Assembly: GCF_022045235.1 (NCBI RefSeq)
Contig: NW_027266343.1
Coordinates: 27,900,001-27,964,000, forward strand
Origin: Haliotis cracherodii
Lineage: Eukaryota
Length of the DNA: 64,000 bases
Direction: 5' to 3'
Of this stretch, positions 40,223 to 61,021 are shown piece after piece. The notes beneath the pieces were generated by a model. The model did not search any database, had not been told where the DNA came from, and saw nothing but the letters and a program-made list of their open reading frames with translations. Position numbers and translations under genes: made by a program. Each line of letters begins with the position of its first letter. Position 1 is the stretch's first letter.

Positions 40223-41009
40223 ATGGAGAAACAGTATTCAGTTGAGTTCTTTATGAACTTTGTGGAAAACATTCAGAATCTATGTCACAACTTTCTTGAG
40301 TTCAATCAGAATGTGGAGGTGAGCGGCTATGTCTGTGTGGACATCGACAACATGAAGAAGGAGAGGTATGTTCTCAGTGAGATAGTCCAAATGGGAGGCA
40401 ACTCCATCAGCGAGAGCTACTGTACTAAAGTCTTCAAAACCACTCCCACAGGCACTGTGCAGAGGAGTGGATTCCGGGACATCACAAACGCTCGAGTCCC
40501 CAGTACAGCAACAAGTTCGGGGGAAGTGAATGTGCCAGGACATTCGTATTCATCACAAAGGATGAGGACTGGTCATCAGAGGAAAAGTGAAAGCTCCCAC
40601 ACATTATCTTTGAACATGGCTGTTTCACCAAGGTCACAAACAAAGACAGCTATTGACCAAACTTGTAGTGTCTTTCAAGGTCATAATGCCAGTTCAAACA
40701 GTAATAGTAGTTTTCTTAACCCCAGTGTGACAGGCATTCAAGGACGTGAGTCTGGCTCAGGGGATTCCCAAAATCGGACGAAGTCAAGACAGTTGACTCC
40801 AAAAGTATGTAGACCAGCAACAGTGCCTAACAGTTCTGTGCTTAAAAGACGGTGTGAACCTTCCCCCCTGTCAGACAGCGGTGATGATGCGGATGTGATA
40901 GTTGTGAAGCAAGAGCCGTGTGACGAGGAGCGGGAGGAGCACGGCGATCAGCCTCCTGTCAAGCGCCGGAGCGAGACGTTCCGTCTACCTTCATCACTAA
41001 CAGGAGGAG
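40223..41009 (+). CDS. Common first coding exon (A) of a zinc-finger gene: shared unnamed N-terminal domain plus Ser-rich linker
   Basis: Acceptor ttctaattgcag before 40186, ATG at 40223, donor gag|gtatgt after 41009 (787 nt, phase 1). The first ~73 aa align without gaps to the N-terminus of the minus-strand gene. A SUMO consensus VKQE is present. Confidence 0.85.
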
Positions 41010-41276
41010 GTATGTAGTTATTTCATCAGTCATCGTCATGCTGTTTTTATGTTCTCTTAGTAATATTTGAATGTTGAATGCTATGCAATGCTCAGATTTA
41101 ATGATATGGCTATACACTATCTCTGCAACAGTAAACCTGCTCACATGAAAATGTTTTGTCATTGCTATACATTTACGTTTTTACAAGACAGTACTCACCA
41201 CAAGTAGGTCTGGGGAGCAATCCTTCTAAATCTGTAAATAGGTAATGCTTCTGCAATAATGTTTCCAAAATGGTTG

Positions 41277-41396
41277 CAGCATTAGAAATTGGCACGAGTC
41301 CTGTAGTCCTGTCCAAGAAATTTGCGGTTTTAAGGGGTTTGCTATATGTTATCATTATAAGGACTAGTGGGCTAAAACTGTTAGTTTCTACTGCTG
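41277..41396 (-). mobile_element. Small MITE, inverted homologue of 38283-38438
   Basis: Termini cagcattagaaa ... tttctactgctg and shared internal blocks. Confidence 0.6.
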
Positions 41397-41512
41397 GTTT
41401 GCCTGAAGAATTGTTAGAAATTTACAGGGCTCCCAGGCTCCCATAGGTCTTTTGACTATGATTCAATCTGAGGACCATCAACCATTATTCTTGAAATGTT
41501 TTTCGCATGATC

Positions 41513-42670
41513 CCTTTGACTTTAATCCTTTGTAAGGATTAGGAACACTATTGGCTTTAATCCTTTGTGGGGAACACTGTTGGCATTAATCCTTTGTAAG
41601 GACCACTTGATTCAAGCCTTGGAACATGTGGTAGGGAACACTTTGACTTTAATCCTTGATAGGGAACACTTTGACTTTAATCCTTGTAGGGAGCACTTTG
41701 ACTTTAATCCTTGTAGGGAGCAGTTTGATTTTAATCCTTTGTAAGGAACACTTGATTTCAATCCTTGTGGGGAAGAACTTGACTTCAATCCTTTGTAAGG
41801 AGCACTTTGACTTTAATCCTTTGTAGGGAACACTTTGACTTTATTCCTTTGTAAGGTGCACTTTGACTCTTAATCCTTGTAGGGAACATTTTGACTTTAA
41901 TCCTTGTAGAGAACAATGGACTTCAATCCTTTGTAGGGGACACTGGACTTCAATCCTTTGTAGGGAACACTTTGACTTTAATCCTTTGTAAGGAGCACTT
42001 TGACTTTAATCCTTTGTAAGGAACACTTTGACTTTAATCCTTTGTAGGGAACACTTTTACTTTAATCCTTCGTAGGGGGCACTTTGACTTTAATCCTTTG
42101 TAGAGAACTCTTTGACTTTAATCCTTTGTAGGGAACACTTTGACTTTAATCCTTTGTAAGGAGCACTTTGACTTTAATCCTTTGTAAGGAACACTTTGAC
42201 TTTAATCCTTTGTAAGGAGTACTTTGACTTTAATCCTTTGTAAGGAGCACTTTGACTTTAATCCTTGTAAGGAACACTTTGACTTTAATCCTTTGTAAGG
42301 AACACTTTGACTTAAATCCTTTGTTAGGAGCACTTTGACTTTAATCCTTGTAAGGAACACTTTGACTTTAATCCTTTGTAAGGAACACTTTGACTTTAAT
42401 CCTTTGTTAGGAGCACTTTGACTCTAATCCTTTCTAAGGAACACTTTGACTTTAATCCTTTGTTAGGAGCTCTTTGACTTTAATCCTTTCTAAGGAGCAC
42501 TTTGACTTTCATCCTTTGTAAGGAACACTTTGACTTTAATCCTTTGTAAGGAGCACTTTGACTTTAATCCTTTGTAAGGAACACTTTGACTTTAATCCTT
42601 TATAAGGAACACTTTGACTTTAATCCTTTGCAAGGAACACTTTGACTTTAATCCTTTGCAAGGAACACTG
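41513..42670 (+). repeat. 28-bp intronic minisatellite (~40 units), almost all with TAATCC
   Basis: Unit ctttgactttaatcctttgtaaggaaca, degenerate at the 5' end and more homogeneous at the 3' end. Confidence 0.92.
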
Positions 42671-43434
42671 TTGATGACCAATTGCTTTATTCATCCTTAC
42701 ACAAGCCAGAGCTAAACATGTTTATAAAGTTATTTGAGTTGTGGGAAAAGATTTTCCTTTGGGAAATTGATTCTAGTGTCTCCATCTGATACATAGTGCA
42801 CATTACAAGAGCTATGTTGATGTCTTTAGAGGCTTGGTCATGTTGATCATAAAGCTGTATTTCTCAAGACAACAGGAATTCCAGGAAACTTCCTGATGCT
42901 TGTGATCATTGGTTCATATATTGTGAATCACACCCCGGACATCAATGGCATCATTGTAATTTCACAAAGGTCAGATGATGGTGATCATGTTGATGATTAT
43001 AATACTTACTTACTTGTATGTATTTGTTTCTCAGAGGGACCTTTACTACTTGTGTTTGAAGATGTCTGCATGATAAGATACAAATATGTTTGTGGAGCCA
43101 CAGCAAGCCAGGCATCAATAGTGGTAATCTAATCATGGTTGCTAATAACAACGCTGAGTATGTGTGATTTGCCAATCAGAATGATCAATCTTCTGGCTAT
43201 GTCGCTGAAATTAGTAAATAGATTTATAACATAAAGCCAGATATTCAGTGAACACCAGATAAGGTAATTACAGGACTAATTTGTGTACTTCAGTTCAAAT
43301 TTGACATGCTCCTGTCGGTGTTACTGGCACCAGGTAGTGTAGGTTGCTGCTGTATATGGATATGGATGTAGGTGCTCCTGGCCACAATGTTCAAGGTACA
43401 TCTGTTGAAGAGGATGTCTTGCTTTCATCTGCAG

Positions 43435-43994
43435 GCTCAGGCTGGGCTCCTGACGACGACGATGATGCCTCAGACTCCATGTTCTACACTGAAACCTCTT
43501 CCGACCTGGCAGACTCGGGAACAGAAGTGCATCAATTTGCAACAACTGTGGATGCGTCTTCAGAGCATGGAGCCAAGCCTAGCATAGCCAGTGTTGTCAG
43601 TAATATGCGCCCAGCTCCACTTGTTACAGAGACTGCCGGTGGTAAGAAGATGACTTGTCAGCTGTGTGGCAACTCGGCCTGGTCCGACATGGGCTTCATG
43701 ATGCATATGAACAACCACCCATCGTGTAAAGAGTGTGGGGTCTACATGGCCACCCACATGGATCTGCGGGGCCACATTGAGATGGAGCATGGCCGGATGA
43801 ACATGCACATGTGCAGATTCTGTGACAAGGTGTTCTTGACGAAGAGCGGAGTGACAGAACATCAGCGCCTCAAGCATGAGAAGACTGCCCCCAAGTTTGT
43901 GTGTATGATTTGCGGCCATGTTTGTGTCCGGAAACGCCATCTTGAAGATCATGTGGAAAATGTTCACAACAGAAGGAACAAATTGACTCCATAG
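43435..43994 (+). CDS. Terminal exon B: acidic linker plus 4 C2H2 zinc fingers (448-aa isoform with exon A)
   Basis: Acceptor tcttgctttcatctgcag| at 43435 is phase 1 in the 43344-43994 ORF. Fingers: CQLC..HMNNH, CKEC..HIEMEH, CRFC..HQRLKH, CMIC..HVENVH. The exact acceptor is uncertain, since a weaker phase-1 site exists at 43372. Confidence 0.78.
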
Positions 43995-44707
43995 TGCTTG
44001 TGTGTGTGTTTGTGTGTCAACAAGGAAAGGGCTTAGATAATATTATTATATCTTCATATTAGAATGATCAGGTCTGATTGGTTCATGTGATCTTGATAAA
44101 ATACTATGTATCCCACCAGGGAGGGAAATAAATTTCTGATTGTGAAAATAAATCCCTTATAGTTATACCCCACCTTGAAGAAAACAGACTGCACATGGAT
44201 TTCTGAGCAGGAGATAAATCACTTATACCCCCCTTCATAGCAAAAGGCCGCACACTTTTTCCGAGTCAATGATGCATCATGACATAGCACAAATTAACCT
44301 CAGCTCAATCGAACAGCTGTTTTCTATCAATTTTGAATTATGTTTTAATACTCTTGCAATGGCAAATTATAACATGTCAGGAAGATAAATTTGTTGTAGC
44401 AATATCACTAGGAGTACATGTGGTTTTATGCGTCCCTTGTTAGGTTTTATACCACGAGTCGGATGAAACCTAACACGTGAAACATCATGTACCCCTTGTG
44501 ATACTGCTACAACTTATATTAATTTGAACCAACAATTCCTGTTGGTTGTCCATCCAGAATATTTTTCAATTTGAATAACTTCACATCAGTAAGAATATCT
44601 GTATGGTATAAGCAGGATATAAGGTAGAATATAATTAAGTGGAAATTAGGGCTGAATTGTAATCAGAAAATACAAAATGTTCTACCTCTGAATTACGCGT
44701 CATATGT

Positions 44708-45260
44708 CATCTTCCCGAGGCAAGGGATTATAAAATTGCAGTTTCCAACCTTGCCAAACTAGGCTGGAATTTCGTGGTTCGATCGTTGTGCCACCAGTGA
44801 CTATAACGAGTTATGTCCCTTCTATGTCTGTCCTATTGGCCAAACAGATTCAACCTTTCACGTCACTTGCATATGCTTCAAACAAAATGGTATTGCTCTA
44901 TTACATGATCTGATCAATTTAATCGAAAGAAGTTTCCCATTCCCTGCCAGACAGACACCTGGTGCCAATCAGTCAAGTCTTTGCAGGATGGAAAAGACAT
45001 TTTCTTTTCAACAAAGAGATGTAATAGGAAAACCCTATCGTGTGATGTGTGCCAGTTTTGTATGAAATCTTATACTCGCACCTATGCATTCGGCCAAAAT
45101 CTGCACGCTATCGCCATGTTGTTTACCGCCATGTGGATATCGTTACACCATTTTATATTGGACTATGCAAAGACTCGTCATGCCAGCTAACATATAACTC
45201 AGACGTTCCAGCCTAGTTTGGACTTTCCTAGTCAGTTAACTCCCTTGCCTTGGGAAGATG
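44708..45260. mobile_element. MITE, same family as 61494-61977
   Basis: Termini catcttcccgaggcaaggga / tcccttgccttgggaagatg and subterminal ccaaactaggctggaa / ttccagcctagtttgg. Confidence 0.8.
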
Positions 45261-46117
45261 GTCGTATATTGCTGTCTCACTACAAAACAACTCACCTCAT
45301 TGTATTGAGCAATTTTATGTCACTTGTGGTGGAGTACTGTGGGGTGAACTGTTTGCTTCAAAACATGTCAATACAACAAGATTTCTGAATGTATTTTGGT
45401 GGGGAAAGTTTGAGTATGTCTTCAAGAGCAAACAAACATAAGTAAAAATAATACATGATATTGCATATTAAGTAAGATAAAAACATGTGTGACACTAAGC
45501 TTCTTTATTTGAATTAATATTGTTACATTAAATAATTGACACTTCTCTGGGACCCCCATATTTTAACCTGGAGCTCCAAAGGTTGCGAGTCCCTTGGACC
45601 CCCAAACAGATAATCCAGGTAAATGCCTGACAGTGTACTTATCCTAATGTATGTAGAGTAGAGGTACACCACAGGAAAACTTTACAGCTTGTTTTGAGAA
45701 ATATTGAAGGGACGTGTGAATACATTTGCTTTCAACTTTCCATTCTGTGTTGGCCCGGACCAACAAGATGCACAATGTCTTTGTTATCTTATATCACTGT
45801 TTGTGAAAGGCATTACAAAAATGGTTTTGCATTTCGTACAAAGGTGTCAAAACATTGCATTAAAACTGCTCCCAGTTATGAAATAGTCTTTAGTTGATTC
45901 TAGTGCTATGAAGGAGTATTATTTGAAGCCAGATGTAGCAGTGTTTGTGAAAAAGCCTGCACTACCAAAATACTTGTAGTATGTGTAGAATGTGTATGTG
46001 AACTCTTGATACTGCCCATACAAGTGATAATAAACATGGACTTAGTAAATGAAATGATGTTTGCTTATCCTTAACGTTGATGGAAGGTTTTACTTACATT
46101 AATACATAGTCAACACC

Positions 46118-47695
46118 CGTTACTATTGACATAATTATCATGATCAATTCAACACACGTTACAATTTACATAATTAACATGATCAATTCGTCACATGTTA
46201 CTATTGACATAATTATCATGATCAATTCAACACACGTTACAATTTACATAATTAACATGATCAATTCGTCACACGTTACTATTTACATGATTAACATGAT
46301 CAATTCATCACGCGTTACTATTTACATAATTAACATGATCAATTCGTCACATGTTACTATTTACATAATTAACGTGATCAATTCATCACACGTTACTATT
46401 TACATAATTAACATGATCAATTCGTCACACGTTACTATTTACATGATTAACATGATCAATTTATCACACGTTACTTCATATATTTACATAATTAACATCA
46501 TCAATTCGTCACATGTTACTACTTGTATTTAAATAATCAACATGATCAATTTGTCACACGTTACTATTTACATAATTAACATGATCAATTCGTCACACGT
46601 TACTACATGTATTTAAATGATTAACATGATCAATTCGTCACACGTTACTATTTACATAATTAACATGATCAATTAGTCACACACTGCTACATGTATTAAA
46701 TAATTAACATGATCAATTCAACACACGTTACTATTTACATAATTAACATGATCAATTCGTCACAGGTTACTATTTACATAATTAACATGATCAATTCGTC
46801 ACACGTTACTATTTACATAATTAACATGATCAATTCGTCACGCGTTACTATTTACATAATTAACATGATCAATTCGTCACATGTTACTATTTACATAATT
46901 AACGTGATCAATTCATCACACGTTACTATTTACATAATTAACATGATCAATTCGTCACATGTTACTATTTACATGATTAACATGATCAATTTATCACACG
47001 TTACTTCATATATTTACATAATTAACATCATCAATTCGTCACATGTTACTACTTGTATTTAAATAATCAACATGATCAATTCATCACATGTTACTATTTA
47101 CATAATTAACATGATCAATTAGTCACACACTGCTACATGTATTAAATAATTAACATGATCAATTCAACACACGTTACTATTTACATAATTAACATGATCA
47201 ATTCATCACACGTTACTCTTTACATAATTAACATGATCAATTCGTCACAGGTTACTATTTACATAATTAACATGATCAATTCGTCACACGTTACTATTTA
47301 CATAATTACCATTATCAATTTGTCACACGTTACTATTTACATAATTTTACATAATCAATTGGTCACACGTTACTATTTACATAATTAACATGATCAATTC
47401 ATCACACATTACTATTTACATAATTAACATGATCAATTCGTCACACTTTACTATTTACATAATTAACATGATCAATTCATCACACGTTACTCTTTACATA
47501 ATTAACATGATCAATTCATCACACGTTAGTACATATATTTACATAATTAACATGATCAATTCATCACACCTTACTATTTACATGATTAACATGATCAATT
47601 CATCACACATTACTACATATATTTACATAATTAACATAATCAATTTGTCACACGTTACTATTTTCATAATGAACATGATCAATTTGTCACACATA
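46118..47695 (+). repeat. 39-bp AT-rich minisatellite (with 45-bp variants, ~40 units)
   Basis: Unit aattaacatgatcaattcgtcacacgttactatttacat, giving the MINSSHVTIYIIN pseudo-ORFs. A higher-order duplicated block is visible (about 46260-46530 vs 46790-47060). Confidence 0.92.
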
Positions 47696-47710
47696 TTAAT
47701 GTAATTAGTA

Positions 47711-48447
47711 ATTTATTATCCCCTGCCCAACGAAGTTGGCGGGGAATATAGAAACGGTCTCCGTCCCTCTGTCTGTCCATCCATCACGTTTCGTTTCCGG
47801 AGCATAACTCAAACCGTTAAATATTTTTTCATGAAACTTTGCATGTCTGTCAGGTACATGCTGAACTGGTGCCTTTTGATATTTAGAAATTTTAGAAAAA
47901 TTTATTTTTTACGTTTCCATGGCACAACATAAAATGTGTGTGGCACTCGTGGCAGCCTACTTTCTCGCAGTGAGTGCCGGTAACATGACACTAATGTTTT
48001 TTCTTTCTCCCACGCTAATGAATTCAGCAGTAAATGTAGTAACTGGTTTTGTCAGTTTGCACTTACATCATGTTTTTTGTGGAGAAGGTTTCATTTTTTT
48101 TCCTGAACTTCATAGAAATTGTGTTTTGCTGCTTTTTATTTTGTTTCTTCAGGATATTTTACATCAAGTAGATGCTCCCCTGCTGCCTATTACACCTTAC
48201 AAAGTTTTGAATATTTTCAAATGTATGTGTTTGTGTGATCAAATTTCACTATTGTTGACATAATATACACTTCATTTGCTGGGCAGGAGACTTGGCCACG
48301 TTAGGCAAACTCTTCTTTTTTTACAATTTCCATGACAACAAGTTCAACCTCGGTTAAAAAAGGTTAGGGTTTGTTTAGATTTAATTATGTCATAAATTCT
48401 GCAACAGGGGCGGGGGATATAGCCACGTTAGTGGCAAACTCTTGTTT
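47711..48447 (+). mobile_element. DINE-1/HINE-like non-autonomous rolling-circle (Helentron-associated) element
   Basis: T-rich insertion site, 5' subTIR tatcccctgcc with a nearby inverted copy ggcggggaata, ccgtc/ctgt microsatellite-like tract, 3' subTIR ggcgggggata, and stem-loop gccac-gtta-gtggc before the terminal tcttgtt. Confidence 0.7.
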
Positions 48448-48809
48448 TAGTTGATAATTTATTGGATGAGCAAAATAACAGAACCCAAGTACAGTTTCCA
48501 CTAATATACAATTCCAAGACTAGTGCTATGACTTGTACATATTATGATGATTAGTTAATAAAAGATAATTTCAAATGCTTTTGGTGACCTACAATATTGA
48601 CTTGACTTCTTGATTTCACCACTGGCTACCTGGAGAAAAACTTTAACTTGGAAGCCTGATTACTATTTACTTTACTTTGTTACTAAATCACAAAGGTGGC
48701 CGCTCTCCTACACAGCACAGACAGGTAGAAACATTGCCAGTCTTCTCTCACCAGGATGGTGTAAGTTGAACTCATATCCTGTGTGTCATGCAGTCCTTCC
48801 ATCAGAACT

Positions 48810-49075
48810 AGATCCAGGGTAGAATAGGTCTTCAGCAACCCACCCTTGCCATAAAAGGCAACTATGCTTGTAGTAAGAGGCGACAAATAAGATCGGGTGG
48901 TCAGGCTTGCTGACTTGGTCGATGCATGTCATAGATCCCAATTGCGGAATGTTGCTCATGATATTAATCACTGGACTGTCTGGTTCAGACTCGATTATTT
49001 ATAGACCACCGTCATACACCTGTTATGTTGCTGAGTGCGGCGTTAAACAACAAACCAACCAACCAACCAACCATC
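48810..49075 (+). mobile_element. SINE with Nin/Deu-like core and (AACC)n tail
   Basis: cttgtagtaagaggcgac..gatcgggtggtcag core and a 3' gctgagtgcggcgttaaacaacaaaccaacc tail. Confidence 0.65.
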
Positions 49076-49112
49076 AAAACTAGTTTAATTTTATTTGGAA
49101 ATCTTAAAGGAA

Positions 49113-50338
49113 CATCAATATCATGTCCCCCCCAGCTCATCAGTATCCTATCCACACATCCTCTCATCATATCCACACATCAATATCATGTCCCCCCCAG
49201 CTCATCAGTATCGTATCCACACCTCCTCTCATCGTATCCACACATCAATATCATGTCCCCCCCAGCTCATCAGTATCATATCCACACATCCTCTCATCGT
49301 ATCCACACATCAATATCATGTCCCCCCCAGCTCATCAGTATCGTATCCACACCTCCTCTCATCGTATCCACACATCAATATCATGTCCCCCCCAGCTCAT
49401 CAGTATCGTATCCACACCTCCTCTCATCGTATCCACACATCAATATCATGTCCCCCCCAGCTCATCAGTATCCTATCCACACATCCTCTCATCGTATCCA
49501 CACATCAATATCTTGTCCCCCCAGCTCATCAGTATCGTATCCACACCTCCTCTCATCGTATCCACACATCAATATCTTGTCCCCCCAGCTCATCAGTATC
49601 CTATCCACACATCCTCTCATCGTATCCACATCAATATCATGTCACCCCAGCTCATCAGTATCCTATCCACACATCCTCTCATCGTATCCACACATCAATA
49701 TCTTGTCCCCCCAGCTCATCAGTATCCTATCCACACATCCTCTCATCGTATCCACACATCAATATCTTGTCCCCCCAGCTCATCAGTATCCTATCCACAC
49801 ATCCTCTCATCGTATCCACACATCAATATCATGTCACCCCAGCTCATCAGTATCCTATCCACACATCCTCTCATCGTATCCACACATCAATATCATGTCA
49901 CCCCAGCTCATCAGTATCCTATCCACACATCCTCTCATCGTATCCACACATCAATATCTTGTCCCCCCAGCTCATCAGTATCGTATCCACACCTCCTCTC
50001 ATCGTATCCACACATCAATATCTTGTCCCCCCAGCTCATCAGTATCCTATCCACACATCCTCTCATCGTATCCACATCAATATCATGTCCCCCCCAGCTC
50101 ATCAGTATCCTATCCACACATCCTCTCATCGTATCCACATCAATATCATGTCCCCCCCAGCTCATCAGTATCCTATCCACACATCCTCTCATCGTATCCA
50201 CATCAATATCTTGTCCCCCCAGCTCATCAGTATCATATCCACACATCCTCTCATCGTATCCACATCAATATCATGTCACCCCAGCTCATCAGTATCATAT
50301 CCACACAGCCTCTCATCGTATCCACACATCAATATCAT
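49113..50338 (+). repeat. ~65-bp C-rich minisatellite (~19 units)
   Basis: Unit catcaatatcatgtcccccccagctcatcagtatcctatccacacatcctctcatcgtatccaca. It has no TAA/TAG/TGA on the + strand, hence three overlapping long ORFs. Confidence 0.92.
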
Positions 50339-50362
50339 ACCCTCACATCTGAAGGATCCTTG

Positions 50363-50972
50363 TGTTCTGAAGACATGTTCTGAAGACATGTTCGTTCATT
50401 AAAAGTGTGCTCCATAACGCACCCGGAGCCTATAGATCGCGCTTCACGTGCACTCGTGTTAGTTTTAAAAAGGAATCTGTTCTCCAAAACACACCCGATG
50501 CATAACGATCGCATCGCCTGAACACACCAACGTATGGCTGTGACTGCACGTGAAATGTGAGGATGTAAGCAAATATAAGGCGGTAGCGCGCATCAGTTAG
50601 TTAGTTGGTCATAGTTCGCTAGAGAGCTGGTTAGAGTTCGCTAGATGGTTAGTTAGATGGTTAGACAGTTGACCAGAGTTCGTTAGAGAGTTCGTTGGTT
50701 AGACATGGCGTTAGACAGTGTTAGACAGTGTTAAGACTCCCTTAGGAGTAACTGTTAGAATTAGCATTTAGTTTCTTTCATTTGAGGTTGATTCATCTTT
50801 CCTTCATATAATAACAGGTAATCACGTTTAGTTCCTTATAGGTCTTCATAGTTTTATAACAGGTTATCACGTTTAGTTCCTGGATACCACAAAAAAGGTA
50901 AGTCATACAAATTTTACATTAGTTTTCATTTAAGTTAAACCACGCTCAAATATTCAGTTCCACTGCGCAACA
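50363..50972 (+). repeat. 5' LTR
   Basis: Starts tgttctgaagaca (x2) and ends gcgcaaca. It appears identical to 56730-57339. Confidence 0.95.
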
Positions 50973-51074
50973 TTTGGTAGCAGAGCGTGGTTTCTCTGGT
51001 TAGAATATTTTAGTTTTGTATTAGGCTTTCGTTAGTTTAGCATTAGGTATAGCTGATTGTTACATGCAAGCAGT

Positions 51075-54000
51075 ATGTCGCAGTTAGGGTCTGCGAGTAA
51101 GGCGGAAATAGAAAAGGATACTTCTTCAGACGTAGCGCTGAAACGGTACACTTCTTCAGACGTTGGACTAAAACAGAACACTTCTGAGCTTGAGCTAAAA
51201 ATAGCTAAACTTAAGCATCAGAAAACTATTACAAAGTCAGCTTTGACAAAATCAAAAAACAAATTGTTGAATTTAGTTGAACTTGAGTCACCAGATCGTA
51301 AGACAATTAGGAGTCTAATTGATCAGGTAAGTTTTCTGCAAAGCAAGGCTATAGGTCTCATAGTTGAGTTACTAGAAGCTTACAACTGGGCTGGTGACCT
51401 AGAGAAAGTTCAGAAAACTAGTAAAGAGATAGAAACTGTTGAAGATGAAAATGAACTTGCCCTTGATAAGGCTGAATCATTTCTTAAAAATAGATCACAT
51501 GTTAGTTCGGACGCAAAAGGCATTCAGTCAGAAATGTCAAGATCTCGTCAATTCGATGCGGATCGGTCGCATGACTTGGACAGTGGTGGCACTGGACAAA
51601 TCAGTAACCAAGGTTACAAACATGCTGCGTTCAATTTAGGCCATTTTCAACAAAGGTCAAATATGGATATGAAACGGACACCAGTCCCTGATAACACAAA
51701 AGGGTGTTATACAACTTCAGGTAAGTCATCTAGGCAACACAATTTAGGTGAAGACATGTGGAAACAATTGAGGAGAGTTTCCATTCCAGTATTTTCTGGC
51801 GATGTCAGAGAATATGAAGGCTGGAAGTCTGCTTTTATGGCATGTGTTGATAAAGCTCCAGCCACCAATGAATATAAACTTCTGCAATTGAAGCAGTACC
51901 TTTCTGGAGAAGCAGCACACATAGTTGCAAGGCTAGGTCACAGTGCTTCGGTCTATGATGTAGCCTTGGAGAGATTGGACAGAAAATATGGCGGCAAGAG
52001 ACGCCAGGTAGCATTACAATTGGACGAAATATACAATTTCAAGCCAATACGATTAGGGAATGCTAAGGATATGGACAGATTTGCGGACATGCTTGATGTA
52101 GCTGTAGTCAGTCTGAGGGAATCTGATAAAATAGAGGAACTTGGTAGTGGATGCTTGTATTCACTACTGGTTAAGAAAATGAATGAGCCTATGATAACTC
52201 AGTTCCACAGATGGTTATTTGAGCACCAAAGACAAGAGTCTGTTGAGACGCTTAGGGAATGGATTCTGCAAGAAGCAGAGTTCCAAACGATAGCTTCAGA
52301 GGTAAAACATGGAATAGCTGATAGGTCAAAGACAACAGACAAGAGAGATAGTTCTAAGAAAGGAACATATGCAACCACACACAATAAAACTAGGGCAAGG
52401 CAATGTCATGTGTGTCATGAAGCAGATCATGACACTTCAGATTGCACAGAGTTTAAATCTATGGGCTTGCCTAAACGCTGGGAAAGGGCAAAACAGTTAG
52501 GTTTATGCTTTCGTTGCCTTGATATCGGTCATCTGGGAAGATCGTGTAGCAGAGTTTTGAAGTGTGGGATTGATGGTTGTAAAGCAAATCATAACAGGTT
52601 ACTTCATGATCAAACCAAAGTTACAAGCAGTGCTAGGGCCGACAGTGGTAATGTAGAGATGAAACATACCACAACAACACCACAAGCAGGTAGGTCAGAA
52701 ACAATCACCATGGCAACTTCTAAGCAGGAAGGTCATTACCTTTCACTTAGGACAGTTCCTGTTATCCTTAAGAGTGGTCAGCACAGAATGATGGTTAATG
52801 CCTTGCTGGATGATGCCAGCACGCATACTTACATCAACGAGGATGTAGCAGCAGAACTTGGTGTTCAAGGTCAGACACAGCAAGTGTCAGTCAATGTCCT
52901 CAATGACAAACAGGAAATATTTGATAGTATGCTGATTGATATTGGCTTAGAAAGTACTGATGGTTCTGTTGACATGAACATCACAGCTTTGACAACTACC
53001 AAAGTAACAGGTAGAATGGAAGTCATTGATTGGCGAAAACATGCAAAGGAATGGCCACATTTGATGAAAATAAAATTTCCAAAGGTAAGTTCTCGTCCAA
53101 GAGTTGACATACTGTTAGGTATGGATTATTTAGAGCTGCATTCCTCTCTTAAAGAGGTCCGTGGAGCTCAAGGAGATCCTGTGGCTCGGTTGACACCCTT
53201 AGGTTGGACCTGTGTTGGTGCTGTATCAGGTTCAGACAAAACACATGTAGCAGGTTCCTTCTTCATCAGAAATACAGAAATAGAAGCAATCGCAGATACA
53301 GATATTGAATCTTTGATTCACTCATTTTGGGAGTCTGAAAGCATTTCTGGTTTGACATCGATTAGAAGCATTGATGAGAATGATGCAGTTAAGGCTGTAG
53401 AACAGTCCCTTGTTTACAAAGCAGACAAATATCAGGTTGGCATTCCATGGAAGGAGGGTCATGAGAATCTGAAAAACAACTATGACATGGCATACAATCG
53501 TCTTCTTAATTTAGAAAGGAAGTTGTCAAAGGATCAAACGATTTCGGGAGCCTACAATGAAGTCATAGAACAATACCTGAAAAAAGGTTACATCAGAAAG
53601 GTACCTGAAACAGAAATAGATCAAAGTAAATGGTACTTACCACATTTTCCAGTCATTAAACCAGACAGAAGTACAACAAAGGTAAGAATCGTATTTGACG
53701 CATCTGCAAAGAATAAAGGCATATCTTTAAATGATGTCATTCATCAAGGACCAAAACTCCAGAATGATCTATTTGAGATCTTGCTTCGTTTTCGCAAACA
53801 TCCTGTTGCAATCATTTGCGATATTGCTGAAATGTACCTTCAAATTGAAGTCGCTCAGGATGACCGTCCATATTTAAGGTTTCTTTGGAGGTCTATGGAT
53901 CTGAACAAAAAGCCAGATGTGTTTGAGTTCTCAAAGGTTGTGTTTGGACTAAATTGTTCCCCCTTTTTAGCTCAGTATATCACTCAAGAACATGCTAAGT

Positions 54001-56615
54001 CCATGGAGAAAGAACTTCCATTGGCTGCAGCAACCGTGGAAAAGTCAACATATATGGATGACAATATGGATTCCGTTGACACAAATAGCAAAGCTATAGA
54101 GCTTTACAAACAGCTGCAACAGCTGTGGAGTACAGCAGGTATGCACGCTCGTAAGTGGGTTTCCAATTCCGTGCAAGTCCTCCAAGAAATACCAGAAGAG
54201 GATAGATTGAAAGAGATTAATATTCAAATGAGTGAATTGCCATCTGTAAAAGCACTTGGCTTACTATGGAATGCAGAATCAGATGAGTTTAGATTTTCTT
54301 TCATGTCCTTAAAGCAGGATATCAAGATGACTAAGAGGAACTTCTTGAAAGAAACTGCTAAGCTGTTTGATCCTCTTGGGTTCTTAGGTCCATTCATCAT
54401 TAGGGCAAGGGTTCTTCTGCAAGAAATGTGGATATCCGGTGTTAACTGGGATGAAACCCTCAGTCCAGATCTGGAACAAAAAGCATGGTCTTGGTACCTT
54501 GAAATTGAAAAGTTGTGTTCTGTTAAAATTCCAAGGGGGCTTGAGGTTAGCTTAGATACTTCAAAGATGAAGTTGCACACATTTGTAGATGCTTCAGAGG
54601 CAGCATTTGGAGCTGTGGTATATTTAGTAACCACTCGTGAAGATGACACAAAGTCGAGTTATCTAGTTGCTTCCAAGTGCCATGTTGCTCCCCTCAAGGC
54701 AGTTAGTATGCCTCGATTGGAGCTGCTTGCGGCAGTTCTGGGTGTACGACTGTTACTGGCTATAACAAAGGCATTAGAATTACCTTTGCAGCGTGCAACG
54801 CTATGGTCAGACAGCCAGAACGTACTGTGGTGGATCAAAAGACAGAGTCGATGTTTTAAGCCATTTGTAGCAAATAGGATTGGATATATACAGGAGCATA
54901 CAAACATCAGTCAGTGGAAATACGTACCATCCAAACTGAATGCTGCAGACATTCTTAGTAGAGGTGTTGACGCTGAAGCACTTTTGACAGAGAAATGGCT
55001 GAATGGACCTGAATTTATGACACATGATGAAACTGAATGGCCGAAGCAGACCACTGACATGGACAATACTGAGACATCAGAACTGAAGAAGCCTTCTCAA
55101 GTAAACATCGCCATGTTTACTAAGTCTGATCCAATCTCTTGGAGATTAGCGCCAGCTAGATTTTCTAGTTGGAAGAGATTGTGTAGAGTGTCGGCATGGA
55201 TCTTTAGATTTCTGAACAACGCTAGGGTTCCATATTCACTTAGGAAAAAGGGTGAACTTGATCCTGAAGAAATTGAGGACGCCGAAACTACAATTATGGT
55301 CAGGACTCAAAGAGAAGAATTTTCTGATGACTACTCGTCACTGATGAGGAAATCAAACTTGCCTTCAAACAGCAAGTTGTTTGGCTTACAGCCTTACGTT
55401 GATAAAAATGGGTTGATGAGGACAGGAGGGAGACTCAGATTTGCTGACGTATTGTCATTCAGTGCCAGATTTCCAATTATACTCCCTAGACATAGTTGGG
55501 TCACCAAACTGATTGTCAAGTTTTACCATGAGCAGGTCAATCACACAGGTACGAACAGTACGTTATCAGCAGTTTCATCTAGGTTTTGGATTATTTCAGC
55601 TAGAGAGGAAATTCGTCAGTGGGAAAGAGAATGTTCTTGGTGTAGACGACAAAAAGCCAAACCAGCGCATCAGATAATGGCAGACCTACCGAAGATCAGA
55701 GTGAGGTGTACAATGAAAGCATTTGTGACAACAGGTGTGGACTATGCAGGTCCCTTTTTCACGGTACAGGGTCGAGGCAAGAGTCGACAGAAACGTTATC
55801 TCTGCCTTTTCACATGTTTGTCAACCCGAGCGGTTCATTTAGAAATGGCATTCGGTTTAGACACGGATTCCTTTCTGAATGCCCTGTTTCGTATGGCCCA
55901 CAGACGAGGTATGCCAAAGGAGGTAATCTCGGATAATGGAACCAACTTTGTTGGTGCTGCAAAGGAGCTGAAGCAGCTCATTTCTGGACTAAACTCGGAT
56001 GTGATTAAGTCAACCTTGGCAAACAAAAGTGTGAAGTGGTTGTTTAATCCTCCACACGCACCATATTTTGGAGGTGTTTTCGAGTCTTTAGTGAAGTCAG
56101 CAAAACGGGCTATCTATGCTATACTGAGTTCAGGTGACGTCAGTGATGAAGAGCTGATGACAGCCTTTACAGGAGCTGAAGCTCTTCTGAATTCTAGGCC
56201 TTTAACCTATCAAAGTGCACATCCACAGGATGATGTGCCTCTTACGCCCAACCATTTCCTACATGGTCAGGTGGGTGGAGATTTCGCACCAGAGTTAGAC
56301 TCTACCTCATTCAGCCCAAAGAAGCGATGGAGGAGAGTTCAAGAACTCATCAGACATGTGTGGAAACGATGGATGAGGGAGTGGCTCCCGACTCTCAACA
56401 TTAGAAAGAAATGGTTTACACCATCCAGAGACATACAGGTTGATGACGTTGTCATTGTGGTATCTCCAGATACTCCTCGTGGAGTTTGGCCTCTTGGCAG
56501 AGTTCTCAAAACGTATCCTGGAAAGGATGATCACGTGCGCGTCCTTGATGTTCAAGTTGGCAAAACAGTCTTGAAAAGACCTATCACGAAGGTCTGCCCT
56601 CTTGAATGGAGTTGA
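51075..56615 (+). CDS. BEL/Pao Gag-Pol polyprotein (~1846 aa from the ATG at 51075)
   Basis: DUF1759-like gag (IPVFSGD..EW..F), three CCHC/CCHH knuckles, protease ALLDDAS, RT YMDD, Pao RNase H (FVDAS..AFGAV, PRLEL), integrase HHCC plus DDE (VDYAGP, SDNGTNF, E), and C-terminal WPLGRV. Confidence 0.96.
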   Translation: MSQLGSASKAEIEKDTSSDVALKRYTSSDVGLKQNTSELELKIAKLKHQKTITKSALTKSKNKLLNLVELESPDRKTIRSLIDQVSFLQSKAIGLIVELLEAYNWAGDLEKVQKTSKEIETVEDENELALDKAESFLKNRSHVSSDAKGIQSEMSRSRQFDADRSHDLDSGGTGQISNQGYKHAAFNLGHFQQRSNMDMKRTPVPDNTKGCYTTSGKSSRQHNLGEDMWKQLRRVSIPVFSGDVREYEGWKSAFMACVDKAPATNEYKLLQLKQYLSGEAAHIVARLGHSASVYDVALERLDRKYGGKRRQVALQLDEIYNFKPIRLGNAKDMDRFADMLDVAVVSLRESDKIEELGSGCLYSLLVKKMNEPMITQFHRWLFEHQRQESVETLREWILQEAEFQTIASEVKHGIADRSKTTDKRDSSKKGTYATTHNKTRARQCHVCHEADHDTSDCTEFKSMGLPKRWERAKQLGLCFRCLDIGHLGRSCSRVLKCGIDGCKANHNRLLHDQTKVTSSARADSGNVEMKHTTTTPQAGRSETITMATSKQEGHYLSLRTVPVILKSGQHRMMVNALLDDASTHTYINEDVAAELGVQGQTQQVSVNVLNDKQEIFDSMLIDIGLESTDGSVDMNITALTTTKVTGRMEVIDWRKHAKEWPHLMKIKFPKVSSRPRVDILLGMDYLELHSSLKEVRGAQGDPVARLTPLGWTCVGAVSGSDKTHVAGSFFIRNTEIEAIADTDIESLIHSFWESESISGLTSIRSIDENDAVKAVEQSLVYKADKYQVGIPWKEGHENLKNNYDMAYNRLLNLERKLSKDQTISGAYNEVIEQYLKKGYIRKVPETEIDQSKWYLPHFPVIKPDRSTTKVRIVFDASAKNKGISLNDVIHQGPKLQNDLFEILLRFRKHPVAIICDIAEMYLQIEVAQDDRPYLRFLWRSMDLNKKPDVFEFSKVVFGLNCSPFLAQYITQEHAKSMEKELPLAAATVEKSTYMDDNMDSVDTNSKAIELYKQLQQLWSTAGMHARKWVSNSVQVLQEIPEEDRLKEINIQMSELPSVKALGLLWNAESDEFRFSFMSLKQDIKMTKRNFLKETAKLFDPLGFLGPFIIRARVLLQEMWISGVNWDETLSPDLEQKAWSWYLEIEKLCSVKIPRGLEVSLDTSKMKLHTFVDASEAAFGAVVYLVTTREDDTKSSYLVASKCHVAPLKAVSMPRLELLAAVLGVRLLLAITKALELPLQRATLWSDSQNVLWWIKRQSRCFKPFVANRIGYIQEHTNISQWKYVPSKLNAADILSRGVDAEALLTEKWLNGPEFMTHDETEWPKQTTDMDNTETSELKKPSQVNIAMFTKSDPISWRLAPARFSSWKRLCRVSAWIFRFLNNARVPYSLRKKGELDPEEIEDAETTIMVRTQREEFSDDYSSLMRKSNLPSNSKLFGLQPYVDKNGLMRTGGRLRFADVLSFSARFPIILPRHSWVTKLIVKFYHEQVNHTGTNSTLSAVSSRFWIISAREEIRQWERECSWCRRQKAKPAHQIMADLPKIRVRCTMKAFVTTGVDYAGPFFTVQGRGKSRQKRYLCLFTCLSTRAVHLEMAFGLDTDSFLNALFRMAHRRGMPKEVISDNGTNFVGAAKELKQLISGLNSDVIKSTLANKSVKWLFNPPHAPYFGGVFESLVKSAKRAIYAILSSGDVSDEELMTAFTGAEALLNSRPLTYQSAHPQDDVPLTPNHFLHGQVGGDFAPELDSTSFSPKKRWRRVQELIRHVWKRWMREWLPTLNIRKKWFTPSRDIQVDDVVIVVSPDTPRGVWPLGRVLKTYPGKDDHVRVLDVQVGKTVLKRPITKVCPLEWS

Positions 56616-56729
56616 GTTCTGAAATTGTCAAATTGGATAACAGCAACAAATGTACATACTCATAGATTCAGTTTCCTTTCAGTTTAGTCGGTTTTCATGA
56701 TAGACATGGATCTATCATGGAGGGGGGCA

Positions 56730-57339
56730 TGTTCTGAAGACATGTTCTGAAGACATGTTCGTTCATTAAAAGTGTGCTCCATAACGCACCCGGAGCCTAT
56801 AGATCGCGCTTCACGTGCACTCGTGTTAGTTTTAAAAAGGAATCTGTTCTCCAAAACACACCCGATGCATAACGATCGCATCGCCTGAACACACCAACGT
56901 ATGGCTGTGACTGCACGTGAAATGTGAGGATGTAAGCAAATATAAGGCGGTAGCGCGCATCAGTTAGTTAGTTGGTCATAGTTCGCTAGAGAGCTGGTTA
57001 GAGTTCGCTAGATGGTTAGTTAGATGGTTAGACAGTTGACCAGAGTTCGTTAGAGAGTTCGTTGGTTAGACATGGCGTTAGACAGTGTTAGACAGTGTTA
57101 AGACTCCCTTAGGAGTAACTGTTAGAATTAGCATTTAGTTTCTTTCATTTGAGGTTGATTCATCTTTCCTTCATATAATAACAGGTAATCACGTTTAGTT
57201 CCTTATAGGTCTTCATAGTTTTATAACAGGTTATCACGTTTAGTTCCTGGATACCACAAAAAAGGTAAGTCATACAAATTTTACATTAGTTTTCATTTAA
57301 GTTAAACCACGCTCAAATATTCAGTTCCACTGCGCAACA
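56730..57339 (+). repeat. 3' LTR
   Basis: Follows the PPT and matches the 5' LTR. Confidence 0.95.
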
Positions 57340-57866
57340 CCTTGTGTTATCTAGTTAGCAGCTCTAAGTTTGGATGTGTGTACAAATCAGTCCCTATTCA
57401 GACAGGATACTTCAGGTGGTCACTGGTGAACTGGGCTTGTGCACATTGGCAGCCCAAGTAACTTTGATTTAAATCTTTGAAACACTACTTTGTTTATGCT
57501 TTCTCAATTAAAACCTTTCTGATGATATATTAGTAAAGGGACACACGTCTGTAACTATGACTTGGTAATCAGTCAATCAGAGGGTCCCGCTTAAAATGGT
57601 AGCATATTGCAAGTTGGAGTAGCACTATATGTCATTCTACGCCATCATTTACATGCCGGTAGACACAATGTCTTCACACAAGACACTAATTTCAGTGTCA
57701 AGATCTCAACTGGAAACGGCATGGAACAGTTGAGCATAATCCGTCGTTAGTTTAATGCTAAATAATCAAACCAAGGTGAGCTTCTGTTACACAGCCGTCA
57801 GTAAAGCTAATGTTCAAATAATTGTTCAGTTTCAGTCGACCCTGCATTTGTTCCTAGTCCCGTCAT

Positions 57867-59504
57867 TAAGGGTGTAAAGATAAACTGATACGATACACGA
57901 TACACGTTGGACTATATATTGATACGCCACAATACGTAATGCAACCCTAAGTACAGTGTTCCTTCGCCGTTGCACCCTTCAATATAGCATAGCACTAACT
58001 CAGTTATAGCGTGCGCGGTAACTTATGGCTCCCAAAACTTACTTACATTATTAATAAGCTCATGTTTTACTCTGACATCATGTTTTTCCCCATCTCAAAA
58101 AACATTATCAGCTGATCACCATGAGCAGGTAACACCGGAACTCCGAACTGAAGTATGCAATTAAATCCCATTAGTATACTATCTGGTGATGAAAATGTGT
58201 TCATTGTATATCTGGACTTATGTATGTAATATATTTTATTGATCTTATTCATAATTTCATTCAATATTGTTTACATTACTTTAGGCGAAATCGTGTGTAA
58301 AGTGATCAGTCAGATTACTGCTTCTGACGTCTTGAAACAAACTTTAGTTGCCAGAGAATGCATACATATGTTATAAATGCCATACTTTGACGTGTTTAAA
58401 GTCATCTTTGTGGCAATTTTACTACTATATGTCAACATAACATTTTCGCAATTGAAATACAAATAGTGCAGGAAGTTCCGGGTGACTGGTCAAATTGTTC
58501 CATAGGTAAAAATATCCTGCAATAGCAAACACCTGTACCAAAGTGCTGCGCTTATGGTTCTTATAATATTAAATATATATAGTAAAAGCTCCAACTTAAG
58601 TAACACAATATTGGAATATGTTAATCCTGATGAAACAATAATTTCAGATACAATTTCTTCCAACCACTGCATCAAATATTTTTGAAGTTGTATCATTGGT
58701 ACTTTTTAATTGAATCATCAGTAGATTGGGAGAAAATGCGTTTAGAGCTGATTGCTTTTTCCATCTTAGTTTACGAGAAAATGCACATGGTAATCCTAAA
58801 TCTCTGCATATAAAACAATGCCTGTGAGAGCAGGAAATTCAATTTTTATGGTAAATCATTGTGTCTAGTGTGTCATATTTTTATTGACCAAGTTTGTTGT
58901 ACTTGTTTGTTCATCTGAATTCGCTGAAGGGTTACGATGTGGGTTTTTTAAAGCACTTAACACTTCATAAATATTTTTGGACACTATGAATCATAAACAA
59001 CTACTATCCTAATCTTTTTTCAAGTCTGAAATGCTCATCATAGATCCTGTTAGGTAGGCAGAGCATGTAGTCCACGACTCCACCCCCGGTAACACTCAAC
59101 AGCAGGAGACACTGTCAGTACCTAGAGGACATCACTATCCCCCCGACAATGTTGACATTTTAATTTTCAGACCATGAAGTACATCAATTATTTTCTCATG
59201 TTTGAACTTTGAAGTTTTCTGCTGTTTTGAAATTTGAAGTGTTTTGAAGGAAAAGTAGAGAAAATTCCACTTTGCAGCTTAACAACTTCAGAAGTTGTCA
59301 TTTTAAAAGAATTGTGACTGTTCGAAAATCATGAAAGGTCCAATCCTAACATGCTTGAAGTCTTGAAACTTAATAAATGCTAGAGTACCGGAGTAATGTT
59401 ATCTGGGTTTTTTTTATCGTTGCATATCGAGATACGTATTGTATAATGACCAGACTTTCGAGATACATATCATATCGTGACCTTCCTGTATCGTTGCAGC
59501 CCTA
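57867..59504. mobile_element. Old non-autonomous hAT-like DNA transposon inserted in an exon
   Basis: Imperfect TIRs: taagggtgtaaagata vs reverse-complemented right end tagggctgcaacgata (12/16). Subterminal cgatac/gtatcg repeats. 8-bp TSD cccgtcat (57859-57866) / ccaatcat (59505-59512), 6/8 match. Confidence 0.65.
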
Positions 59505-59749
59505 CCAATCATCCAACATCCTCATCCAGCCCCTAGCTCAAGCAACACCAGAGGTGAGAATAAGAGTTATCTCTCTTCATCCAGCAAGGAAACAAGCAAT
59601 TCAACACATCATGATGATAAGAAACCAGACTTGTCCGTGGAAGAGATTCAGAACTTGGAGGACTATGAAGTAGAACTTGTTCCGTCAGATGCGGAAGAGG
59701 AGAGCCTGGACCTGACTTTCCAAGTGGCACATCCAGGAGGAGCTGTACA
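59500..59749 (+). CDS. Internal exon C1 (acidic, Ser-rich linker) of the distal zinc-finger module; not called in this frame by the ORF track
   Basis: Acceptor cttcctgtatcgttgcag| (phase 1), open frame (A)LPIIQHPHPAPSSSNTRGENKSYLSSSSKETSNSTHHDDKKPDLSVEEIQNLEDYEVELVPSDAEEESLDLTFQVAHPGGAV, and donor ca|gtaagt (phase 2), which matches the phase-2 acceptor at 60469. Confidence 0.65.
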
Positions 59750-60468
59750 GTAAGTGGGGGAACATGGGGTTGTCACCTGTCCCTGAAACCAAGAATGGCT
59801 ACTCACTTCACAACTAGCCCTGAGATGACACTAGAAGTAACCTTCCGTTGCTAAACTTAGAATGATGTGGGTCTGAAAACTTATCACAGGGAGCTTCAAA
59901 TCTGATCAGGAATGGAAGTAACTCCTCCATTCTGCCATTTTAAGAGAAGTGAAGGCTTTTATTTGTCAAACGAAATCATGTTGATACTTTGTGAATTAGA
60001 ATGAAAGAAATCGCCCCTGACTCCTTAGTTTGAGACACAACATGTGATTTCTGAAGGATATTTGCAAGCGGAATTGACAAACAAATATTAAAAATTGTGT
60101 CAAGTTTCAGTTCTTGGTCAGTTTACAAGAGAATACACATGGTCATCTTAATCTCTGCCTATGAGAGAAGAAAATTCAATTTTAATGGTAAATCATTGTG
60201 TCTAGAGATGCTGATTGTGTCAGTTCATGTTTAGTGATCAAAGGTTACCTGTAGTGTTATTCCAGAGGTTCACGTAAAGCGAGTCATTCAACGAATACAC
60301 CTTGTTTTGATACCAAGTTTATTGGATTGGTTCATAACACTATCCATTACATGATAATCAATATTCCACTTTCATATGGTTCAGGTGTATGTGTCTGCGA
60401 AATAAGTCATTATCACCAGCTGAGTTGTGTACAGTCTTAATTTAATGAGAACTTTGATTGTGTTTCAG

Positions 60469-61021
60469 ATCCAGTGTTATTGGAGCACAAGATTCAGGTA
60501 ATTCTCCTTCTACTCACATTAATCACGCACACACAATTATCTCTGATAAAAACCTCCACCCGACACCTGAACAGGGCATGCTGCATGATAACCGGGCCTG
60601 TCATATTGATGGGTACCAGGCAGGGGTTGAAGCCTGGCAGTGTTCTCAAACCCAGCCTGGTGGAATAGTCTACAGTTGTGAACAGTGCTTCCAGACATTC
60701 ACCAGCATCTGCGATCTAAAGACTCATGCGCTAAAACTTCATCACAATACATATGTTTGTGATTGGTGTGGAAAGCAGCTGAAATCTTCCCATGGCTATA
60801 AACTTCACTGTAACTCTCATGCTGGTGATTATAGATACATATGTCCTATTTGTGACAAACGTTTTCAACAGTCTTCTCATTTGGAAGGGCACATCAACAC
60901 ACACAATTCTGTCCGTCCTTTCAAATGTCCAACATGTTTTAAAGGCTTTTCATACAGATTTAGCATGACCAAGCATGCAAAAACATGCCGGAATGGAATT
61001 AGTCAGAGTGGTTTAGACTGA
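60469..61021 (+). CDS. Terminal exon C2: 3 C2H2 fingers plus 1 C2HC finger (529-aa isoform as A+C1+C2)
   Basis: Acceptor ttgtgtttcag|. Fingers: CEQC..HALKLH, CDWC..HCNSH, CPIC..HINTH, CPTC..HAKTC, with TGEKPY-like linkers (AGDYRY, NSVRPF). Confidence 0.82.

Follow-up and report, generated by a model that had tools for sequence, protein, structure and literature searches.

Within a window of 64,000 nucleotides of Haliotis cracherodii DNA (contig NW_027266343.1, positions 27,900,001 to 27,964,000, forward strand), one gene combines a single constant exon with alternative endings of DNA-binding type, namely two zinc-finger arrays and, beyond the window end, a predicted BEN-like domain. The endings are probably selected by cis-splicing coupled to the choice of poly(A) site, and the products probably bind different DNA sites and associate via their common N-terminal domain. 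The core of the initial annotation, which compared the locus to Drosophila lola and mod(mdg4), is thereby supported, and the gene is a small member, with three endings, of a gastropod-wide family with the same layout.

Results

Exon layout

The constant coding exon A (40223-41009 on the plus strand, counted from the ATG; 787 nt) starts with an unnamed N-terminal domain of about 75 residues (40223-40447), continues with a low-complexity linker and ends in a phase-1 donor (GAG/GTATGT). Terminal exon B (43435-43994, plus strand) encodes four C2H2 fingers and its own stop, and is followed by AATAAA poly(A) signals at 44127 and 44147. Further downstream on the same strand, the acidic and Ser-rich hub exon C1 (59500-59749), common to isoforms X1 and X2, precedes the composite terminal exon C2 (60469-61021), which when read through yields four fingers (three C2H2 and one C2HC) and a stop, with AATAAA at 61023. 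The GT/AG ends, the phases and the length sums verified that exon A joins either B or C1 plus C2 in frame, with a single terminal stop in each product (A+B, 1347 nt; A+C1+C2, 1590 nt), and the A+C1+C2 translation is identical to RefSeq isoform X1. The finger arrays of B and C2 are as dissimilar as had been claimed (25-28% identity between the two), and a genome search with the N-terminal 73 residues gave no match between A and C1, in agreement with the earlier statement that C1 and C2 have no N-terminal exon of their own. The intron between B and C1 harbors a BEL/Pao LTR retrotransposon (50363-57339, plus strand), with 610-bp LTRs that are 100% identical, TG..CA termini, a 5-bp target duplication and one frame of 1852 residues (51057-56615), which lies outside the coding design of the gene.

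Transcript and annotation support

Junctions were assessed in contigs from seven sequencing runs presumed to be RNA, none of them on record as RNA, and the contigs carry no strand, expression level or full-length phasing. The 41009/59500 junction was confirmed by run contig X1 record 1, which passes from 40901-41007 straight into 59498-59749. For the 41009/43435 junction, the loose ends before 43433 in runs X17 and X14 consist of the last letters of exon A; such A-to-B joins occur in two of four runs, from two studies of related organisms (F and G) and not from organism A, the one closest to the window. Run contig X3 record 23 extends 32 letters beyond C1, the length common to both continuations from that exon. 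The joints listed for these contigs include neither C1-to-C2 nor C2a-to-D, the list with the A-C1 joint being taken up by repeats. The A-C1 contig, together with RefSeq isoform X1 in four species, excludes the case in which C is silent and A is joined only to B.

The RefSeq models of H. cracherodii (XP_071090312/313) and their orthologues in H. rufescens, H. rubra and H. asinina include X1, identical to A+C1+C2, while X2 and X3 supply the other endings; X1 and X2 are found in four Haliotis species and X3 in two. H. asinina and H. rubra have the exon B ending in their isoform X3, and no X3 record was found for H. cracherodii. These models are named "uncharacterized" or after a chance zinc-finger likeness, and neither the N-terminal domain nor the family layout is named in them.

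A predicted third, BEN-like ending beyond the window

A third ending, predicted by RefSeq models and overlooked in the initial annotation, is reached via a donor inside C2. In isoform X2 only the first 29 nt of C2 are used (C2a, 60469-60497, plus strand), and an internal phase-1 donor after 60497 (CAG/GTAATT) leads to D1 (G000:C80:27,979,661-27,979,728), D2 (G000:C80:27,980,144-27,980,381) and D3 (G000:C80:27,981,199-27,981,347), all past the window end. C2a plus D1-D3 is the only exon set in the searched ranges that reproduces P0034, and the ending is annotated in four Haliotis species. It resembles the BEN domain of the NACC1/Insensitive type over 112 residues (E 0.093 against NACC1, which gave the only PDB matches), yet stays below the Pfam BEN cut-off (E 0.063; 13.9 bits against 23.2). 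Its Atlas matches are BEN clusters (0.91-0.92, 192 shared features), and it aligns with family endings that themselves pass Pfam BEN. The full-length X2 model with this ending has a pLDDT of 33. The BEN-like domain is divided between D2 and D3, and no second BEN half-exon was found among 2064 acceptor frames.

Two further phase-1 acceptors with short open frames had been pointed out, at 43035 (32-residue frame) and 62905 (49-residue frame). These proved to be at chance level, with 27 comparable sites on the plus and 30 on the minus strand in 26,426 intronic bases; no coverage of 43028-43071 was present in four runs, and neither frame had a Pfam match. A Pfam scan of 124 of 145 frames on both strands, to 100 kb downstream, disclosed no extra endings, the 21 omitted frames overlapping known exons or the LTR element. 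Apart from transposon pieces, the 124 frames matched only the following gene (LIM-domain-binding) and, in one weak match, an AAA-ATPase.

Conservation and the N-terminal domain

Across Haliotis species the finger arrays are identical at 100-106 of 106 residues (94-100%), with 106/106 and 104/106 for the exon B array in two species, and the BEN-like part at 106-111 of 112 residues. In the N-terminal domain 72-75 of 75 residues are identical in other Haliotis, and in the exon A linker 133-147 of 187 (71-79%) in the distant species H. asinina and H. rubra. Judged from these alignments, each ending is under strong constraint.

The N-terminal domain had no Pfam or PDB sequence match, and exon A as a whole had none in Pfam at E<=0.1. 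Among 23 family members compared with Pfam at E<=1 none matched BTB, no BTB chain appeared in PDB sequence searches with the domain at E<=10, and the FxLRWN motif of Tramtrack-group BTB is absent from the domain alignment. By sequence, the constant domain is thus not a BTB domain. Across 108 aligned sequences the sole invariant residues are F9, C21, G35, D42 and E53. The predicted structure (pLDDT 73.7) consists of a helix (residues 3-24) and a beta-hairpin (30-41/45-56). In fold searches with this model of a helix and two strands, nothing reached E<=0.001 or Z>=5; the top match, the MADS domain of MEF2D, has a chance-level Z of 3.9 (rmsd 4.1, 49 residues aligned, 2% identity), and MADS domains also rank 13th and 32nd. 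The ESM Atlas gave no usable match for the domain, and in the literature outside subscription journals neither domain nor family was found described.

The family in gastropods

The H. cracherodii genome (G000) contains 24 matches to the N-terminal domain, 16 of them clustered at C80:2.59-2.92 Mb, so the family also grows by whole-gene duplication. A neighboring paralogue lies in the window on the minus strand. Its first coding exon (27521-28784) encodes the same N-terminal domain (66-69% identical) and has a phase-1 donor, and its terminal exon (26020-27098) encodes DUF3504 (PF12012; E 1.1e-13, 52 bits against a cut-off of 29.7). The phase-1 junction ascribed to this gene (27521/27098) was verified, and a single ending was seen; the H. 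rubra orthologue is P0043 (774 aa). Most paralogues in this genome likewise show only a DUF3504 ending, one per gene, so that interchangeable endings are not a feature of every family member. The paralogue at C80:2,869,431 combines a hub-exon tier like that of the present gene with seven or more endings, each of them downstream and on the strand of the gene itself.

A protein search for relatives gave 390 representatives at E<=0.001, and every relative that is named among the best 150 of these is a gastropod. Of 274 proteins that carry the domain, 267 have its start among their first 30 residues. Among 269 proteins, 30 groups share a common prefix of at least 150 aa followed by 2-9 distinct ends; four of these groups represent the present gene, two represent one paralogue in different species and 13 are Gigantopelta genes. 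The family isoforms are automatic RefSeq models, with isoform numbers of 20-35 in relatives (up to X35); loci of Physella and Pomacea have 34-35 numbered isoforms. The relatives' endings match C2H2, HTH_psq, FLYWCH, CENP-B_N, HTH_Tnp_Tc5, zf-Tnp_2, homeodomain, Nrf1, BEN and DUF3504. Multi-ending genes occur in both main subfamilies of the domain (in a quick tree whose rows include some linker), and the swap layout recurs in several distant gastropod groups, snails and limpets among them. A phase-1 junction is not general in the family, because the Gigantopelta junction residues, as far as protein sequences indicate, point to phase 0. P0098 had been considered as a tandem of N-terminal domains and was rejected, as a single domain is present.

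Discussion

We envisage that the exon A donor would pick B or skip 18.5 kb to C1, both junctions being present in contigs. Past C1, exon C2 would either be read through to the fingers and the poly(A) signal, or be cut after 29 nt and continued in D1-D3; this choice follows the RefSeq models, and the contig geometry fits. Each ending would confer a different DNA-binding specificity, as the domain families and their conservation suggest. We infer that the N-terminal domain associates with itself, since the modeled helix-hairpin, probably of insufficient size to form a closed core by itself, may pair with a second copy. Isoforms and paralogues could then form mixed complexes, by analogy with the role of the Tramtrack-type BTB in arthropods.

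Exon choice could be real and the N-terminal domain could nevertheless bind a common cofactor, such as a chromatin or corepressor complex, or fold on a metal or partner via the invariant Cys21. KRAB is a known domain that binds a common cofactor, the sparse invariants (F9, C21, G35, D42, E53) would also suit a partner surface, and none of the fold matches is significant. However, the core of a MADS dimer is likewise an arrangement of a single helix and one hairpin, to which the predicted structure may correspond, MADS ranking first although with a chance-level Z. Moreover, many endings are short modules that would gain from multimerisation, an argument that part of PMC11426971 makes for TTK-BTB proteins. 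We therefore consider a cofactor- or metal-binding domain rather unlikely. It is highly improbable that the gene merely has ordinary alternative last exons, with B and C as leftovers of tandem duplicates and a superficial likeness to lola. Alternative last exons are common, the gene has only three endings and whole-gene duplication has taken place in the family (the 16 clustered matches), but the endings are unrelated or only 25-28% identical and each strongly constrained, no N-terminal exon stands ahead of C, and the layout is repeated in both domain subfamilies and in several distant gastropod groups.

Trans-splicing of the kind known from mod(mdg4) and lola might account for at least some of the same products, from endings with promoters of their own and possibly shared between paralogues; cassettes had been noted to be frame-compatible between the two genes in the window. 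The contigs do not distinguish cis-splicing from trans-splicing on the same strand, mod(mdg4) also trans-splices same-strand endings according to a section of PMC4387717, the phase-1 junctions are common to the present gene, its neighbor and the C80:2.87 Mb paralogue, and relatives have 20-35 numbered isoforms. The only loose ends before B nevertheless belong to exon A (in the two of four runs), so that exon A alone precedes B in contigs, and cross-gene joins found no support. No opposite-strand endings were present in the 124 frames of the present gene, and all seven of the C80:2,869,431 paralogue are on its own strand. GGTRAGTA, which resembles the TSA core, is absent from three scanned introns and the A-B intron contains no 9/11 U1 match, both weak arguments, as the motifs are from flies. 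Cis-splicing suffices because every mapped ending is colinear, and a contribution of trans-splicing appears improbable.

The preferred reading, a constant exon with cis-spliced alternative endings, invites comparison with the Tramtrack-group BTB genes. Parts of PMC11426971 and PMC4387717 give about 20 isoforms for lola, mostly with C2H2 endings, and 30 or more for mod(mdg4), mostly with FLYWCH. In both designs the alternative 3' exons encode domains of DNA-binding type and are spliced to a constant 5' part, and similar endings recur: C2H2 in the present gene, psq/HTH and FLYWCH in its relatives. In contrast to the BTB of lola and mod(mdg4), the abalone constant domain is about 75 residues of predicted helix-hairpin; the abalone gene has four-finger arrays where theirs have one or two fingers per ending, and exhibits no sign of their trans-splicing. 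According to PMC11426971, Mollusca yielded no TTK-type BTB. PMC10027918, in the portion considered, describes CENP-B, HTH-Psq and related transposon-derived factors in Aplysia, Biomphalaria and others; these are treated there as separate domesticated genes, and the main text does not contain the word "isoform". A non-BTB domain combined with alternative ends of DNA-binding type is in line with the convergent system proposed initially, and the abalone layout likely works like lola and mod(mdg4) by convergence.

More tentatively, gastropods, and perhaps spiralians, may possess a BTB-free counterpart of the Tramtrack group, in which a multimerising helix-hairpin domain and swappable last exons (dozens per locus), many of them transposase-derived modules, provide a combinatorial code of chromatin regulators independent of that in flies; we regard this as possible, at somewhat less than an even chance. 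Genes like lola and mod(mdg4) have been regarded as arthropod oddities, bound to a BTB domain that is specific to arthropods. The same layout with similar endings on an unrelated domain, in a second lineage, would show that the design has evolved repeatedly, and the snail system could be used to ask whether the design requires trans-splicing or whether this is an addition made in flies. It would also bring together a large set of unannotated snail proteins, likely transcription or chromatin factors, that are now dispersed under misleading automatic names, among them proteins of Biomphalaria, Lottia and farmed abalone.

Exon structure and transcript evidence

Exon A (40223-41009, forward strand), which encodes an N-terminal domain of about 75 residues followed by a low-complexity linker, ends in a phase-1 GT donor, and on the same strand exons B (43435-43994) and C1 (59500-59749) are each preceded by a pyrimidine-rich AG site. 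C1 is a hub exon leading to terminal exon C2 (60469-61021, forward strand), which has an internal donor after 60497. When spliced in silico, A+B gave 1347 nt and A+C1+C2 1590 nt, each with one stop, and AATAAA is present 3' of both B and C2. The exon coordinates, phase-1 donor, frames and totals of the initial annotation were thus all borne out on recheck, as was the dissimilarity it claimed for the finger arrays of B and C2 (identity just 25-28%). It had also seen no separate N-terminal exon for C, in agreement with a genome search with the N-terminal domain, which found no second copy between A and C1. The acceptors at 43035 and 62905 were dropped as further cassette sites, their frequency being at chance level. 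Three minisatellite arrays lie in the introns (about 41500-42670, 46100-47700 and 49100-50350), the last a source of long spurious open frames.

The window lies at G000:C80:27,900,001-27,964,000, and RefSeq proteins labelled Haliotis cracherodii, an abalone, agree with its translation. The products of the gene are already in RefSeq as unnamed isoforms: isoform X1 (protein P0031) equals A+C1+C2 letter for letter, and isoform X3 of H. asinina and of H. rubra is the counterpart of A+B. In contig record 1 of sequencing run X1, a probable RNA run (run numbers are unrelated to isoform numbers), 40901-41007 continues directly as 59498-59749, and a contig join that spans 18.5 kb at the splice sites demonstrates splicing. 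The proposed 41009/59500 junction was thereby seen in a contig, while 41009/43435 was seen solely in related organisms: in runs X17 and X14, probable RNA from two further studies and organisms, what immediately precedes 43433 is the closing stretch of exon A (6 and 9 differences in 557 letters), a place not covered by contigs of runs X2 and X11. Both joins of A and their reading frames are shown; C1-C2, missing from the listed contig joints, which repeats occupied, and the join of C2a (the first 29 nt of C2) to the D exons are annotated and consistent.

An annotated third ending, apparently BEN-like

Isoform X2, annotated in four Haliotis species (P0034, P0003, P0004 and P0007), exits C2 after 29 nt via the donor at 60497 and resumes beyond the window in D1 (79661-79728), D2 (80144-80381) and D3 (81199-81347; all forward strand, extended window numbering), which reproduce it. 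Contig record 23 of run X3 extends 32 letters beyond C1, the exact length common to both continuations, and this fits a fork at C2, as read from length and not from letters. Ending D appears BEN-like by three concordant but weak lines, namely Pfam BEN (E 0.063), a PDB sequence search in which NACC1 was the sole match, over 112 residues, and BEN clusters in the Atlas at 0.92. The gene is two-tiered: A is observed to choose B or C1, and by annotation C2 is afterwards either read to its end or interrupted at the internal donor. Of the further cassettes to be sought beyond the window, this annotated one was found, and a search to 100 kb downstream gave no additional ending.

Two Tc1/mariner-type HTH frames (L003:4082-4627 and L003:5692-6003) lie 7-9 kb past D3 on the gene's strand; they are likely transposon remnants and are of the same kind as endings used in relatives. 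A LIM-domain-binding (Ldb/Chip-type) gene is also found downstream (L009:7206-7457 and L010:6100-6426, forward strand).

Constant domain and sequence constraint

Residues 1-75 gave no significant match to Pfam or PDB sequences. An AlphaFold model (108 sequences) consists of a single helix plus a beta-hairpin (pLDDT 73.7), and fold searches with it returned nothing significant, the best row being the MEF2D MADS domain (Z 3.9, rmsd 4.1, 49 aligned). So small a helix-hairpin unit would require a partner copy, and the domain may mediate self- or cross-association.

Identity to H. asinina and H. rubra, respectively, was 74/75 and 72/75 in the N-terminal domain, 106/106 and 104/106 in the B fingers, 100/106 and 104/106 in the C2 fingers, and 106/112 and 108/112 in the BEN-like part. 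Since the endings are better kept than the exon A linker (133/187 and 147/187), all three are likely under maintaining selection.

A gastropod family

The N-terminal domain has 24 matches in this genome, and most of the paralogous proteins found, both neighbours included, have a DUF3504 ending. The gene (40223, forward) and its minus-strand paralogue (28784) are arranged head to head with 11.4 kb between them, and a third paralogue (minus strand, G000:C80:27,899,098, on the window's contig), with an ending resembling those of the DUF3504 paralogues, immediately precedes the window. The B-C1 intron holds a BEL/Pao LTR retrotransposon (50363-57339, forward strand) with identical 610-bp LTRs, a 5-bp target duplication and an unbroken 1852-aa frame, and the element is very young; contigs of run X4 extend over most of the element and differ from it by about 1-4% substitutions.

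A profile search gave 390 representatives clustered at 50%, with named members in Patella, Lottia, Haliotis, Gigantopelta, Littorina, Pomacea, Babylonia, Nucella, Physella, Biomphalaria, Bradybaena and Candidula. Among 269 proteins, 30 groups had at least 150 leading residues in common and differing ends; six of these are two genes sampled from several Haliotis species, and 13 correspond to genes of Gigantopelta, represented by up to 19 of the proteins compared. RNA evidence was examined for the window gene alone, and the family isoforms, whose RefSeq numbers reach X34 in Pomacea and X35 in Physella, are automatic models. In 136 family-member scans (one protein entered twice), endings matched C2H2, HTH_psq, FLYWCH, CENP-B_N, Tc5 and Tc3 transposase HTH, zf-Tnp_2, homeodomain, Nrf1, BEN and DUF3504, and many had no domain match.

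Sixteen matches form a cluster on both strands at G000:C80:2.59-2.92 Mb (loci L021-L040); in most of them the coding sequence is one long frame whose ATG directly follows a splice acceptor. At H. rufescens LOC124149187 and LOC124149185, isoforms that RefSeq assigns to a single gene differ entirely in their coding sequence, which suggests that they have a non-coding first exon in common. The paralogue at G000:C80:2,807,055-2,869,431 (minus strand; L034, L062-L067) has at least seven endings, colinear and on its own strand (four zinc-finger arrays, zf-Tnp_2, Nrf1-like and a basic helix), four of them downstream of a 22-codon hub exon; three of the seven were placed using H. rubra proteins and one using H. 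rufescens. This locus is a better test than the window gene. In Gigantopelta LOC121383032 (P0064, P0245-P0250) the isoforms share a first BEN half and differ in the second, with the swap point at the position of the window gene's D2/D3 intron, an arrangement of half-domain cassettes.

Mechanism and relation to known systems

Endings would be chosen by cis-splicing coupled to poly(A) choice, and each may direct the protein to distinct DNA targets. The cross-gene joins raised initially found no backing. The layout can do without trans-splicing, and nothing speaks positively for it: no opposite-strand ending was found, no TSA motif (itself fly-derived) in the introns scanned, and no foreign exon, nothing but A, ahead of B in the contigs. 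Same-strand trans-splicing is compatible with the contig data.

Broad and fruitless are further genes likened to this design. The suggested lola/mod(mdg4)-like layout on a non-BTB N-terminal domain held: the gene is alike in layout to the Tramtrack-group loci (Drosophila lola, mod(mdg4)) but not a member, no BTB being detected by sequence. According to PMC11426971, BTB proteins of the TTK type are multimerising factors specific to arthropods, their ends being of C2H2, HTH/psq and FLYWCH type, and none is reported from Mollusca. PMC4387717 sets out the features of trans-splicing in mod(mdg4) and lola, and PMC10027918 lists mollusc factors of transposon origin, each as a gene of its own. A literature search returned no description of the N-terminal domain or its family. 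The window gene is real and conserved; contigs show two of its endings, and the third is known from annotation. It is a small member of a gastropod family, apparently undescribed, whose design runs parallel to that of the Tramtrack-group loci.
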